Positions 53,826-56,724 of a stretch of DNA of 64,000 bases are shown piece by piece. The translations under genes were made by a program, and so were the position numbers. The DNA is from Acholeplasmataceae bacterium (GTDB lineage: Bacteria; Bacillota_I; Bacilli_A; Acholeplasmatales; Acholeplasmataceae): the NCBI GenBank assembly GCA_963675245.1, contig OY775910.1, positions 256,001 to 320,000 of the forward strand, written 5' to 3'. The notes beneath the pieces are model-generated. The model was not told the DNA's origin and did no database searches. It was given only the letters and a program-made list of their open reading frames with translations. The first letter of the stretch is position 1; every line of letters begins with the position of its first letter.

Positions 53826-53888
53826 TTATTTAATTTCCACTAGTCCTTCTAATACGAGAAGCCATTTGATACGTTTCTTTTTATTCAT
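53826..53888 (-). pseudogene. Possible truncated cassette gene (MNKKKRIKWLLVLEGLVEIK)
   Basis: GAGG RBS and signal-peptide-like start, stop after 20 codons. Confidence 0.35.
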
Positions 53889-53948
53889 TTATCAACCTCT
53901 GTGAACAATTTAGAAAACATCAATGTCACTCATATTAAAAACACCAAT

Positions 53949-54128
53949 CTATGATTCCTCATCGTCTTCTGGTTTATGTTGTTTTAGGTATCCAGCAAGA
54001 AACATGACCGCAAATATTGTAAGCATCCCTAAATATCCTAGATGAGCACGAGATAATATTATTGTCATTATAATTAATCCAAAAAACCCAATGAGTGCTA
54101 TGATAAAATTAAATACTTTAAAATTCAT
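53949..54128 (-). CDS. Small 2-TM membrane protein (cassette 5)
   Basis: GGGGG RBS, own TGTTATAAT promoter; paralogue of 54820-55005 (IFAVMFLAGYLKQ). Confidence 0.75.
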   Translation of the reverse strand: MNFKVFNFIIALIGFFGLIIMTIILSRAHLGYLGMLTIFAVMFLAGYLKQHKPEDDEES

Positions 54129-54269
54129 ATTCCCCCATCCGACAATCATTAGTTAATGTATATTATAACATGGAATTAAAAAAGCCCCACTAAGGGCTTT
54201 GTTTATAAATTGAAGATATATAAGGGAAATGAGTACTAATCAATAGTTTAGGAGAACGTTCTATTCATA

Positions 54270-54650
54270 TCATGTTAATGTTGACTGATATGTTTCACCT
54301 GTTATGATAAAGAATACATTATCATCTTTGAATGCAATAATGAGATTTTTATATACCGCAAAAATTTGCGATAAATTTTCATCATCCATTCTTGATTCAT
54401 AATCTTGAAGACTAAAATATGCTTCAGCATCTTCGTTATTATCAAATTCTAAAATGTACGCTGCAAATTGTCCATTTTCATCTATTACACGATATTCATG
54501 AACGATATTATCAAATTCGCTTGTTGAAGTTTCAACAGTATAATGATTACTTTCTAAATCTTTAATGACATTATCTACAGAATAGCATCCAGTAAGTAAC
54601 GTCAAAAGTATTATAAATAATAGTAACGACAAAAGTTTTGAAATATTCAT
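54270..54650 (-). CDS. Hypothetical lipoprotein (cassette 4)
   Basis: Lipobox LLTG-C after hydrophobic stretch; GGGGG RBS; own promoter. Confidence 0.75.
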   Translation of the reverse strand: MNISKLLSLLLFIILLTLLTGCYSVDNVIKDLESNHYTVETSTSEFDNIVHEYRVIDENGQFAAYILEFDNNEDAEAYFSLQDYESRMDDENLSQIFAVYKNLIIAFKDDNVFFIITGETYQSTLT

Positions 54651-54719
54651 AATGCCCCCAATTAACATGTTTTCTTTTATTATATCACTTTATATCACCA
54701 AGAAATAGATTTTATTATT

Positions 54720-54757
54720 AAAAAATCCCTTAAAAAGGGATTCATTGTTCTAGTGGC
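54720..54757 (-). repeat. Eroded array repeat (terminator plus trace of tRNA 3' end)
   Basis: AAAAAATCCCTTAAAAAGGGATTCATTGTTCTAGTGGC matches 56612-56651. Confidence 0.7.
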
Positions 54758-54819
54758 ACAATGTAAAATATTTGAAACGTGAGTCATGATTTATAGCTAA
54801 TGACATATAAGACATAATA

Positions 54820-55005
54820 CTACTTTTCTTCATCTAATTCATTTTCTGGTTCGCTTTGTTTTAAGTAACCTGCAAGAAACATTACTGCAAAAATAAATAA
54901 CAATGCGATAGATCCTGCATTTATTGTAATTAAATAAATCGTTACACCTATCATCCCCAAAAAACCGACAATTGATAGCCGGACATTAAACTCTCTAAAA
55001 CTCAT
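54820..55005 (-). CDS. Small 2-TM membrane protein (cassette 3)
   Basis: GAGGGG RBS, own promoter; paralogue of 53949-54128. Confidence 0.75.
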   Translation of the reverse strand: MSFREFNVRLSIVGFLGMIGVTIYLITINAGSIALLFIFAVMFLAGYLKQSEPENELDEEK

Positions 55006-55063
55006 ATTACCCCTCCTCATTATAAAATTTTGATTATACTTATTATATCATACCTTTAAAAAA

Positions 55064-55144
55064 CAAAAAATCCCTCAACAAAGGGATTTATTTTTCTAAT
55101 AGCGATGCACGAGGGATTCGAACCCTCGATCGACGGCTTAGAAG
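55064..55144 (-). repeat. att-like direct repeat: 3' half of tRNA-Arg plus terminator
   Basis: Copy of 56611-56692; tRNA part 55100-55144 has 3 substitutions, including loss of CCA. Confidence 0.92.
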
Positions 55145-55178
55145 ATCATTTAGTCAGCACGAGGATTTTATAGTCAAT

Positions 55179-55847
55179 TTACAACTTAGACAGTTTTTTA
55201 AGGAATTTTGAAAACTTGCTAGGTTCCACATAGTTTATTTCTGATTTAACAAATCCTTTTAGTTTCTCTAAGTTTTTATGATACGATCTATTTATTTTTG
55301 TCACATTATCCTTATATTGCTTTTTATCAATATCTAATAGATTTTCATCACTAAAAGTATTTTCATATTCTAAAAATGATTCTCTTTTCTTCTTTTTGTC
55401 AAAATTAAACAATTTAATCGTGTCTTCCAAGAGATTTTTTTCTTCATTCATATTAAAATATTCTAATGAATCAATAATTTCATCGATATAGTTTACTAGA
55501 GATACTTCTCCTAAAACTTTGAAACCATATTCATGAATAAATCGTAAAAACTCATAGACTAAATAAACCTTAATAAATATAGTATCATTACTATTGATCA
55601 TTTTTTTAACATATTCCACTTTATCAAAATTTGTATAATATAACACATATTCCCAAATTATGTCTAAAATCTTTTCTTCTGGAATTCCTCGTAACAATTC
55701 ATATGATAGTGGATATGCCTTATAGAAGTTAACAATTTTACTTTTTCTTTCTTCTGCCTTCTTCATCATCTTTTCCATGTTAAATGAGAAAGCTTCACTT
55801 TTACTGATTCTCATTAATTTTTTAGCATGCTTGTTTTTTTTATACAT
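55179..55847 (-). CDS. Hypothetical soluble protein (cassette 2), weak DUF4375/DMP19-like pattern
   Basis: Very AT-rich ORF with GAGG RBS and own promoter; family resemblance by eye only. Confidence 0.65.
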   Translation of the reverse strand: MYKKNKHAKKLMRISKSEAFSFNMEKMMKKAEERKSKIVNFYKAYPLSYELLRGIPEEKILDIIWEYVLYYTNFDKVEYVKKMINSNDTIFIKVYLVYEFLRFIHEYGFKVLGEVSLVNYIDEIIDSLEYFNMNEEKNLLEDTIKLFNFDKKKKRESFLEYENTFSDENLLDIDKKQYKDNVTKINRSYHKNLEKLKGFVKSEINYVEPSKFSKFLKKLSKL

Positions 55848-55919
55848 AAGGATTTTCCTCAGAGTTTTCTTTAATTATATCACCGTAGGGCTCTTTAGAA
55901 AACGCCAAATTAACACTAA

Positions 55920-56000
55920 CAAAAAATCCCTTAACTAAGGGATTCATTTTTCTAATGGCGATGCACGAGGGATTCGAACCCCCGACCGACGGTTTAGAAG
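55920..56000 (-). repeat. att-like direct repeat: 3' half of tRNA-Arg plus terminator
   Basis: Copy of 56611-56692; tRNA part 55956-56000 has 1 substitution and starts exactly at anticodon loop CTTCTAA. Confidence 0.95.
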
Positions 56001-56049
56001 ACCTTCTAGTTTTAATAAAATTGTATTTAATTGAGATTTTTAGACTTGT

Positions 56050-56532
56050 TTATTTTTTCCATATACTCAACAAATACTCATAATCCTTTTTATCATATAG
56101 CAGTGTAATATAAGTATCCTCTTTCATTAAGTAATCAGGTTTTTTGATGTTCTCATCTGAATAAATAATTAAGATGTAAATGTCATCATTTTGGTTTCTA
56201 TATTTATTAAGATTAGATGTTTTTATTTGAAGTACTTCGTTGAAATTCATTTTCTTAACAACTCCAAATGGCCATCTAATGATTATGTTATCTCCTTCTA
56301 TATAACCCCATCTTACCCCTTGTTTTAGAAAAATAAAAATATATACCAAAATACTGCAAATGGCTAACAAGCTAAATATTATTAGAATTGTTGGTGTAGC
56401 TGTTGAATTGCTATTTCTTTGAAAATAAGCTAATAAGACAGCGAATATTGGTACAAAAACCAATAATATGCCACAGCCTAAGCCAAACAATAGGTAATTT
56501 CCTATATTTAATTTAAATCTATACTTACTCAT
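56050..56532 (-). CDS. Hypothetical membrane protein, 2 TM plus soluble domain (cassette 1)
   Basis: GGGGA RBS, own TGATATAAT promoter. Confidence 0.7.
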   Translation of the reverse strand: MSKYRFKLNIGNYLLFGLGCGILLVFVPIFAVLLAYFQRNSNSTATPTILIIFSLLAICSILVYIFIFLKQGVRWGYIEGDNIIIRWPFGVVKKMNFNEVLQIKTSNLNKYRNQNDDIYILIIYSDENIKKPDYLMKEDTYITLLYDKKDYEYLLSIWKK

Positions 56533-56647
56533 AAATCCCCACCATAGCATTATATCTTATTCTTATTATATCACCGTAGATCTCCCTTTCAAATAAGAAA
56601 TATTAGTCTACAAAAAAATCCCTTAACAAAGGGATTTGTTTTTCTAA

Positions 56648-56724
56648 TGGCGATGCACGAGGGATTCGAACCCCCGACCGACGGCTTAGAAGGCCGTTGC
56701 TCTATCCAGCTGAGCTAGTGCACC
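56648..56724 (-). tRNA. tRNA-Arg (anticodon TCT)
   Basis: GGTGCACTAGCTCAGCTGGATAGAGCAACGGCCTTCTAAGCCGTCGGTCGGGGGTTCGAATCCCTCGTGCATCGCCA, 77 nt, encoded CCA; promoter TTTACA-N17-TATAAT at 56770-56742. Confidence 0.98.

Follow-up and report, generated by a model that had tools for sequence, protein, structure and literature searches.

A row of small one-gene units behind a tRNA-Arg gene of an Acholeplasmataceae genome, a candidate accretion array of integrase-less cassettes at the attachment site of L2-like proviruses

Integrons include sedentary chromosomal forms and cassette arrays that lack an integrase, the latter termed CALINs. Small elements, integrase-less or forming arrays, are also added at one chromosomal site in the case of Xer-exploiting elements (IMEX) at dif and of the recombinase-associated immunity-gene arrays of Bacteroidales, which use sites (dif and intergenic repeats, respectively) and recombinases other than those considered below and rebuild no tRNA. 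The ssrA islands of Dehalococcoides span many kilobases and carry a recombinase apiece. According to PMC3146451, repeated 3' ends of the small-RNA gene part successive islands. The closest known kind to the locus described here is that of integrase-less cis-mobilizable elements (CIMEs) stacked by accretion. The sections of PMC5704250 on these elements describe CIMEs as lacking integrase or transfer genes while keeping both attachment repeats, and describe accretion as site-specific tandem stacking at a target gene's 3' end, the elements being movable with a functional helper; ICESt1-related elements of Streptococcus thermophilus serve as the example (Pavlovic 2004 and Bellanger 2011, cited in PMC5704250). 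L2-related proviruses are integrated into tRNA genes according to the corresponding part of the ICTV profile (PMC12662186). That proviruses integrate into tRNA genes and that CIMEs accrete is already known; the literature that we searched, with subscription journals and supplements outside its scope, contained no description of single-gene arrays such as the one reported here. This array lies in a stretch of 64,000 nucleotides from an Acholeplasmataceae bacterium (GCA_963675245.1, contig OY775910.1, positions 256,001 to 320,000; hereafter the window, numbered from its first letter), where a row of small one-gene units stands behind a tRNA-Arg gene. We take this row, with slightly better than even confidence, to be an array built by accretion, at an anticodon-loop attachment site and by way of L2-type integrases, from one-gene cassettes that lack an integrase.

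The row of one-gene units behind tRNA-Arg is real. The only tRNA gene of the window is an intact tRNA-Arg(tct), hereafter tRNA-Arg(UCU), found by ARAGORN on the minus strand at 56648-56724 and scored by Rfam as a tRNA with 65.8 bits; no other gene with this anticodon exists in the source genome (G000; 1.63 Mb, 33.9% G+C), which has 42 tRNA genes. A repeat search recovered a 93-nt direct repeat in three copies (56610-56702, 55918-56010, and 55062-55154; 85-89% identical) spaced 692 and 856 bp apart, together with a 38-nt family of four copies that adds 54720-54757, where the terminator and the last few tRNA bases are present. An earlier note, made from the letters of this DNA, had described repeat units built on a tRNA half and two unit sizes of 692 and 856 bp; the three full copies and the short one lie where it had placed them, and the sizes equal the repeat spacing. 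The units, their parts, and their flanks are as follows (gene products in amino acids [aa]).

56001..56692, minus strand: unit 1, 692 bp, with the functional tRNA 3' half (56648-56692), a terminator (56616-56637), and the extended -10 TGATATAAT (56565-56573)
56050-56532, minus strand: g1 of unit 1, 160 aa, with two transmembrane helices by prediction and, at the C terminus, a beta-rich domain
Tail of unit 1, minus strand: 49 bp, ending in TAGAAGGT, which adjoins the next core
55145..56000, minus strand: unit 2, 856 bp, with a tRNA 3'-half copy (55956-56000, 44/45), a terminator (55924-55945), and a -10 (55874-55882)
55179-55847, minus strand: g2 of unit 2, 222 aa
54758..55144, minus strand: unit 3, 387 bp, with a tRNA 3'-half copy (55100-55144, 42/45), a terminator (55068-55089), and a -10 (55042-55050)
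54820-55005, minus strand: g3 of unit 3, 61 aa, a membrane peptide
54213..54757, minus strand: unit 4, with a truncated repeat (54720-54757), a terminator (54724-54742), and a -10 (54679-54687)
54270-54650, minus strand: g4 of unit 4, 126 aa, a lipoprotein as predicted from an N-terminal hydrophobic stretch followed by Cys
53826..54212, minus strand: unit 5, with a different terminator (54181-54200) and the -10 TGTTATAAT (54162-54170)
53949-54128, minus strand: g5 of unit 5, 59 aa, a paralogue of g3, with a tiny open reading frame behind it
53798..53815, no strand assigned: bidirectional terminator shared with the convergent HAD-hydrolase gene, at the distal end of the array
56777..57214, minus strand: MarR-family regulator, the conserved upstream flank (Pfam PF01047, E 6.7e-8)
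52933..53799, plus strand: HAD-family hydrolase (Hydrolase_3), the conserved distal flank (Pfam PF08282, E 4e-57; start approximate)

The extra tRNA 3' halves of units 2 and 3 correspond to tRNA positions 33-77, and both begin at CTTCTAA, the anticodon loop of tRNA-Arg. Identity to the half drops with distance from the tRNA, from 44/45 and 42/45 to a truncated and then an unrecognisable copy, and the likeness in units 4 and 5 is scored as highly by 38% and 11%, respectively, of random genome windows. At unit 5, for which the earlier note had listed a terminator-like repeat only, the terminator is a different one, and the likeness to the tRNA 3' half is weak and not significant. A longer alignment just upstream of the unit 5 terminator (54201-54275, to tRNA positions 11-77) scored 38; a score of at least 36 was attained by fewer than 4.2% of genome windows of 75 nt drawn at random, so that the alignment is marginal and no more than suggestive of a possible decayed tRNA-like relic. 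The tail of unit 2 (55145-55178) contains AAT-CCTCGTGC, which matches tRNA positions 58-70 at 11/12 and is possibly another relic, again a marginal one (~2% of null windows).

Behind each copy of the tRNA half stands a hairpin of AATCCCTT-loop-AAGGGATT with a T run. Terminator-like hairpins numbered 14 in 53600-57300 versus 1.0 +/- 1.1 in shuffled sequences; those on the minus strand include 56616-56637, 55924-55945, 55068-55089, 54181-54200, and 53798-53815, and the unit 4 hairpin at 54724-54742 was called on the plus strand only. The extended -10 box TGNTATAAT occurs 12 times in the window, for an expectation of 7.2 +/- 2.8, and 5 of the 12 fall within the 2.9-kb array, all on the minus strand and each between a hairpin and an open reading frame with a G-rich ribosome-binding site. 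Their ends (56565, 55874, 55042, 54679, and 54162) coincide exactly with the promoters called in the earlier note. A plain sigma-70 two-hexamer scan showed no enrichment (30 versus 24 +/- 4.5). Because independent unitigs from three runs of one sample matched the array sequence with 0 differences and at equal depth, the array is not an assembly artefact; the 706-bp unitig of unit 1 had depths of 35, 94, and 91, about those of its flanks (37/83/79 and 36/76/84). No circle or deletion joints were present in the contigs of these runs, which, as contigs only, are uninformative either way.

Comparison of the locus across genomes, which the earlier note had recommended, revealed a hypervariable site. 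Among nine other species of the genus, the stretch from marR and the tRNA to the HAD gene measures from ~0.6 to 27 kb, and the marR-side flank is ~77% identical at the DNA level in the sister genome G006. In two other genera (G015 and G019), the tRNA lies ~140-150 bp from the HAD gene, and the site is thus empty there. The comparison uncovered no tRNA-Arg cassette in common between genomes.

In relatives, full-size integrating elements occupy this site. That of G002, 13 kb long, extends from the tRNA to a repeated 3' half with the same first base, and it codes for a tyrosine recombinase of 290 aa, at a distance of 1.2 kb from the tRNA. Integrase-bearing elements of ~13 kb are present in G002, G004, G091, G089, G088, and G131, with a distal repeat starting at CTTCTAA, and G105 contains a ~9.5-kb element with a broken integrase and a distal repeat at the same anticodon-loop base. 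These junctions agree with the crossover in the anticodon loop that the earlier note had ascribed to a tyrosine integrase. The integrases of the site are 288-290 aa and of the Xer-like tyrosine type; relatives of the G002 enzyme beside tRNA-Arg are 76% identical in G004, 63% in G091 (two tandem copies), and 62% in G089, whereas the gene is broken in G088 and G105 and only the last 28 aa are left in G131. A second integrase class, ~30% identical, lies beside tRNA-Arg in G123 and G020. After the tRNA, these elements bring a head of their own, consisting of a CCTGG..CCAGG hairpin and then a conserved small gene.

These elements resemble Acholeplasma phage L2. Among 50,697 phage records, a 586-aa protein of the G002 element matches only Plasmavirus L2, the gene order 586/75/316/146/Int290 in G002 mirrors L2 ORF1-ORF5, and this synteny is kept across G091, G089, G088, and G004. 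The L2 integrase is 30-38% identical to the integrases of the site. Based on the L2-matching protein, the gene order, and the integrase identity, the tRNA-Arg site and the enzyme family are those of L2-like proviruses. In G091, two apparently identical L2-like proviruses of ~13 kb stand in tandem at tRNA-Arg(UCU) (L062/L063; G091:C1:416128-442054), giving three attachment repeats. Phage L2 itself (L095, NC_001447.1) has a 17-nt perfect match at 5415-5431 to positions 31-47 of the G000 tRNA-Val(GAC) (E 4e-5), ~380 bp from its annotated putative attP (5029-5053), and the true L2 attachment site may therefore be tRNA derived.

Consistent with the claim of the earlier note that the window encodes no recombinase, all six PF00589 matches of the genome lie outside it, and the genome contains no serine recombinase. 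The six proteins comprise two canonical Xer recombinases, a tandem pair of 323 and 318 aa, and two of 290 and 293 aa, one of which is beside a tRNA-Lys row and the other beside tRNA-Gln. The genes of the tandem pair adjoin one another (G000:C1:1131524-1133448) and belong to another subfamily. The best matches to the tRNA-Arg integrase in G000 and in G006 are only 35% and 29% identical, and on this comparison the cognate tRNA-Arg integrase is absent from G000.

To find extra 3' halves, we compared every tRNA of G000 with the genome, which yielded eight for tRNA-Phe(GAA), five for tRNA-Lys(CTT), and one for tRNA-Gln. The tRNA-Phe row (G000:C1:772658-783300; L078) lies outside the window and consists of ~10 single-gene units, with 11 copies of the core GACTGAAAATCC. 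Its units measure 369-1389 bp, apart from one of 4.8 kb, with one gene per unit, and nine of them have a conserved left core, GAAAC followed by GACTGAAAA. G006 likewise has a tRNA-Phe row, and 1 of the 12 cargo genes of the G000 row is also present there (94% aa identity; 91.5% nucleotide identity over 532 nt), occupying position 5 of the G000 row but position 1 of the G006 row. The similarity ends at the core GACTGAAAATC on both sides, with no integrase nearby, and the chromosomal flanking genes of the two genomes are only ~77% identical, below the 91.5% of the common cassette. Since the G006 copy occupies another position and its similarity ends exactly at the cores, this comparison of sequences provides direct comparative evidence of unit-precise cassette movement in the tRNA-Phe array. 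Two further observations concern this row: two copies (L078 4004 and 4373) consist of the core alone without the rest of the tRNA half, and the last unit codes for a 1469-aa surface protein.

The tRNA-Lys(CTT) row (G000:C1:121853-152000; L079 and L080) contains the five extra 3' halves, and its first interval, of 17 kb, contains an L2-like provirus whose 290-aa integrase (128407-129279) is intact. The later units of this row are 2.3-4.6 kb, and each restarts with the same 79-aa helix-turn-helix gene; their cargo includes a sigma-70-like factor and lipoproteins and, by eye only, a possible HNH-like nuclease and a possible ATPase. At tRNA-Gln(TTG), a 4.8-kb element (G000:C1:990416-995299; L081) is bounded by a repeated 3' half and contains genes for a 293-aa integrase (993346-994227) and a helix-turn-helix protein. 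Elsewhere in G000 (G000:C1:1347162-1347350), a membrane peptide of 65 aa encoded in the tRNA-Arg row of G006 has a homologue with 48% identity. This homologue lies ~3 kb past the tRNA-Pro/Arg/Ser cluster and may be the trace of another row, now decayed.

In the accretion array that we favour, each cassette would carry a single small accessory gene between a head and a short tail, the latter ending in core-like sequence. The head would comprise the tRNA 3' half, which would rebuild the essential tRNA on insertion, the terminator, and the extended -10 promoter. New cassettes would enter at the tRNA-proximal end by site-specific recombination, and older cassettes would shift distally, where their useless tRNA halves would decay. 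The enzyme would belong to the family of Xer-like tyrosine integrases, 288-290 aa in length, that Acholeplasma-phage-L2-like proviruses encode, and, by analogy with CIMEs, an incoming provirus might act in trans or might be excised together with cassettes. We infer that the tRNA-Arg units were at some time circular or mobile as units and that the recombinase is supplied in trans. Because G000 has no cognate integrase, the array would be silent at present or reliant on an incoming provirus. We tentatively extend this proposal, at a level of confidence that falls somewhat short of even, to a broader one in which L2-type integrases, each keyed to one tRNA anticodon loop (Arg, Phe, Lys, or Gln), would insert and shuffle sub-kilobase one-gene cassettes, so that a 1.6-Mb genome would contain several independent, self-expressing libraries exchanged between species; the tRNA-Arg row would be one such library, with its enzyme currently absent.

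A number of observations weigh against the accretion array. There is no direct sign of movement for the tRNA-Arg units, and none of the five cargo genes occurs in the tRNA-Arg locus of any relative. The only homologues of g4 (44-49% identity) are found in two genomes of another genus (G117 and G128), in ordinary chromosomal surroundings with no tRNA or repeats within several kilobases. The left cores of units 2 and 3 (TAGAAGGT and TAAATGAT) weakly resemble the provirus core TG(C/T)AA(A/T)GG(A/T), a likeness that is not significant in AT-rich DNA. Irregular deletion occurs at the locus, as set out below. The heads pose a further difficulty: the AATCCCTT hairpin and the promoter CTAnGGTGATATAAT are found in units 1 to 4, in r2 and r3 of G006, and on the distal side of the G002 provirus, and the accretion array offers no explanation for a head of this chromosomal type in all cassettes. 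Nor does it explain why the head of unit 1 and that of G006 r2 are alike (~93% over 136 nt, the similarity ending just past the -10 box) while the genes behind them are unrelated. Among the genome contigs scanned for the head pattern, no more than two further genomes contained it, and it was absent from all viral and metagenome contigs scanned.

The alternative that survives best, although we consider it unlikely, is that the units are fossils, in which successive full-size proviruses were each deleted to a stub between attachment repeats and the units were never mobile. Decay of this sort is indeed seen at the site, where unit 1 of G006 (2.06 kb) is a decayed provirus in which the first provirus gene survives as a homologue and the 316-aa gene as a fragment, two provirus fragments are left in G007, and G131 is partly deleted; in addition, tandem proviruses exist, as the two ~13-kb copies in G091 demonstrate, and unit 4 and G006 r3 are irregularly truncated. 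The earlier note had itself named the remains of large prophages as the outcome that would speak against its reading, and to the extent that irregular decay takes place at this tRNA, that concern was justified. In the window units, by contrast, none of 21 proteins of the G002 locus has a match, within the sensitivity of tblastn. As the units are without provirus gene fragments and their heads differ from that of the proviruses, simple provirus decay fits them poorly. Deletion would also have had to spare one intact promoter-equipped gene each time, in three to five units here and in ~10 at tRNA-Phe, and the common tRNA-Phe cassette has core-exact ends in two species.

Slightly less probable still is a capture akin to specialised transduction. 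Here, aberrant excision of an L2-like provirus, with the tRNA as one end point and a downstream pseudo-site as the other, would remove its neighbour's chromosomal half, terminator, promoter, and first gene as well; the provirus would integrate in a new host, where later precise excision would leave a small unit. The units would then be by-products of provirus traffic with no dedicated cassette system. This route would account for the chromosome-type rather than provirus-type head in every unit and for the degenerate left cores of the tRNA-Arg units. It would likewise account for the finding that, just beyond the distal repeat of the G002 provirus, the same head as in the window units is followed by unrelated genes. 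However, none of seven provirus-bearing loci contains a provirus with an internal second attachment site and a captured unit, and the strongly conserved left cores of the nine tRNA-Phe units fit dedicated sites better than pseudo-sites. Finally, a homologous recombination hot spot, in which the ~150-nt heads act as portable homology through which DNA acquired from relatives is inserted, duplicated, and lost in a RecA-dependent manner, with no site-specific recombinase after the initial event, is very improbable, for although the heads are 85-95% identical over 90-136 nt, enough for homologous exchange, and the similarity between unit 1 and G006 r2 ends just past the -10 box and not at the core, the upstream repeat edges all lie at the same anticodon-loop base as integrase-made junctions, and homologous exchange alone makes neither such edges nor stacks of unrelated genes.

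The cargo probably consists of small membrane or surface proteins, which we infer to be useful against phage or competitors. The G+C content of g1, g2, and g4 is 24-27%, versus 32-34% in flanking genes. None of the five cargo proteins matched PHROGs or PADLOC, and none reached a curated cut-off in Pfam or NCBIfam; the NCBIfam search gave Wzy_O6_O28 for g1 at 15.4 bits against a 75-bit cut-off and nothing for the other four. For g1, a word-based search returned only itself, two remote matches (E~2e-6) were found among 1.84 billion representatives, and a comparison across 172 genomes of the family gave weak matches only, with no tRNA nearby. The structure model of g1 is weak (predicted confidence, pLDDT, of 60.7), and its best PDB matches are all PH/PTB folds, all with E>=0.0095, so that a PH/PTB fold in this model is a lead only. 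A word-based search with g2 likewise returned only itself. This protein has a weak, sub-threshold signal of likeness to DMP19 (Pfam PF14300, E 1.2e-4, 23 bits, below the 25-bit cut-off), and its Atlas features gave 0.93, with 29 of 30 matches in the DMP19 set; the fold model of g2 was unusable (pLDDT 42.5), and no link between DMP19 and an immunity protein turned up in the literature searched. The peptide g3 is ~50-52% identical to g5 and ~43% identical to a third copy inside the tRNA-Lys array, and a search with g5 returned only paralogues of its own genome and weak matches.

With regard to the rest of the window, the earlier note had suggested an organism that reads TGA as Trp. We rejected this code because translation table 11 already gives dense long open reading frames, in keeping with the standard code. 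Rfam matches at gathering score include a flavin mononucleotide (FMN) riboswitch and two T-box leaders on the minus strand (15284-15397, 34885-35072, and 4620-4801).

If the units are true cassettes, they would represent a second, independently evolved way to gene-cassette libraries, with a phage-type integrase as its driving force and essential tRNA genes as its anchors. Small wall-less genomes, which are usually seen as evolving mainly by loss, would also have in such libraries a major means of acquiring genes. The design is that of a compact, self-contained expression unit, and it offers a testable pair of integrase and site for genetic tools in Mollicutes-like bacteria.

Compared with known systems, the tRNA-Arg row is integron-like in logic but is not an integron. 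Like an integron, it brings together unrelated orphan genes in small cassettes, most of them with a single gene, at one site associated with a tyrosine recombinase, and the newest cassettes would lie at the entry site; integron arrays without a nearby integrase also occur. Unlike in an integron, the site integrase scores only 63.6 bits against TIGR02249 (cut-off 265), its best models being Xer models that are all below their cut-offs, and no PF00589 protein, and hence no IntI-type integrase, lies beside the array in the window. The boundaries are tRNA 3' halves rather than attC hairpins (no attC model search was made), each unit has its own promoter and terminator, whereas integron cassettes are mostly promoterless and rely on a common Pc, and the anchor is an essential tRNA. 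The integron analogy drawn in the earlier note therefore holds for the logic of the array and fails for the Xer/L2-like integrase, the tRNA-half site, and the separate promoters.

As expected of the attachment site of a tRNA-targeting tyrosine integrase, the repeat starts in the anticodon loop and restores the 3' part of the tRNA, and the units, like the ssrA islands of Dehalococcoides, are parted by 3'-end repeats. The row shares with Plasmaviridae (Acholeplasma virus L2) a tRNA target and the integrase family found at this site in relatives. It differs from them in that the window lacks the integrase and the ORF1-ORF4 block, which are present at the same tRNA site in G002, G004, G091, G089, and G088, and contains only the attachment repeats with foreign single genes. 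Similarly to CIMEs, the row retains direct repeats of its target gene's 3' end on its flanks and has no integration or transfer genes of its own. In contrast to CIMEs, descent from a full element by deletion is not detectable for the row at tblastn sensitivity. CIMEs are described as decay products of integrative and conjugative or integrative and mobilizable elements and are kilobases long, whereas the row units are 0.4-0.9 kb with one gene each. The helper of the row would be a provirus and not a conjugative element, and its units are distinguished by a uniform head, in which each has a terminator and a promoter of its own, and by the lack of any helper-derived remnant.

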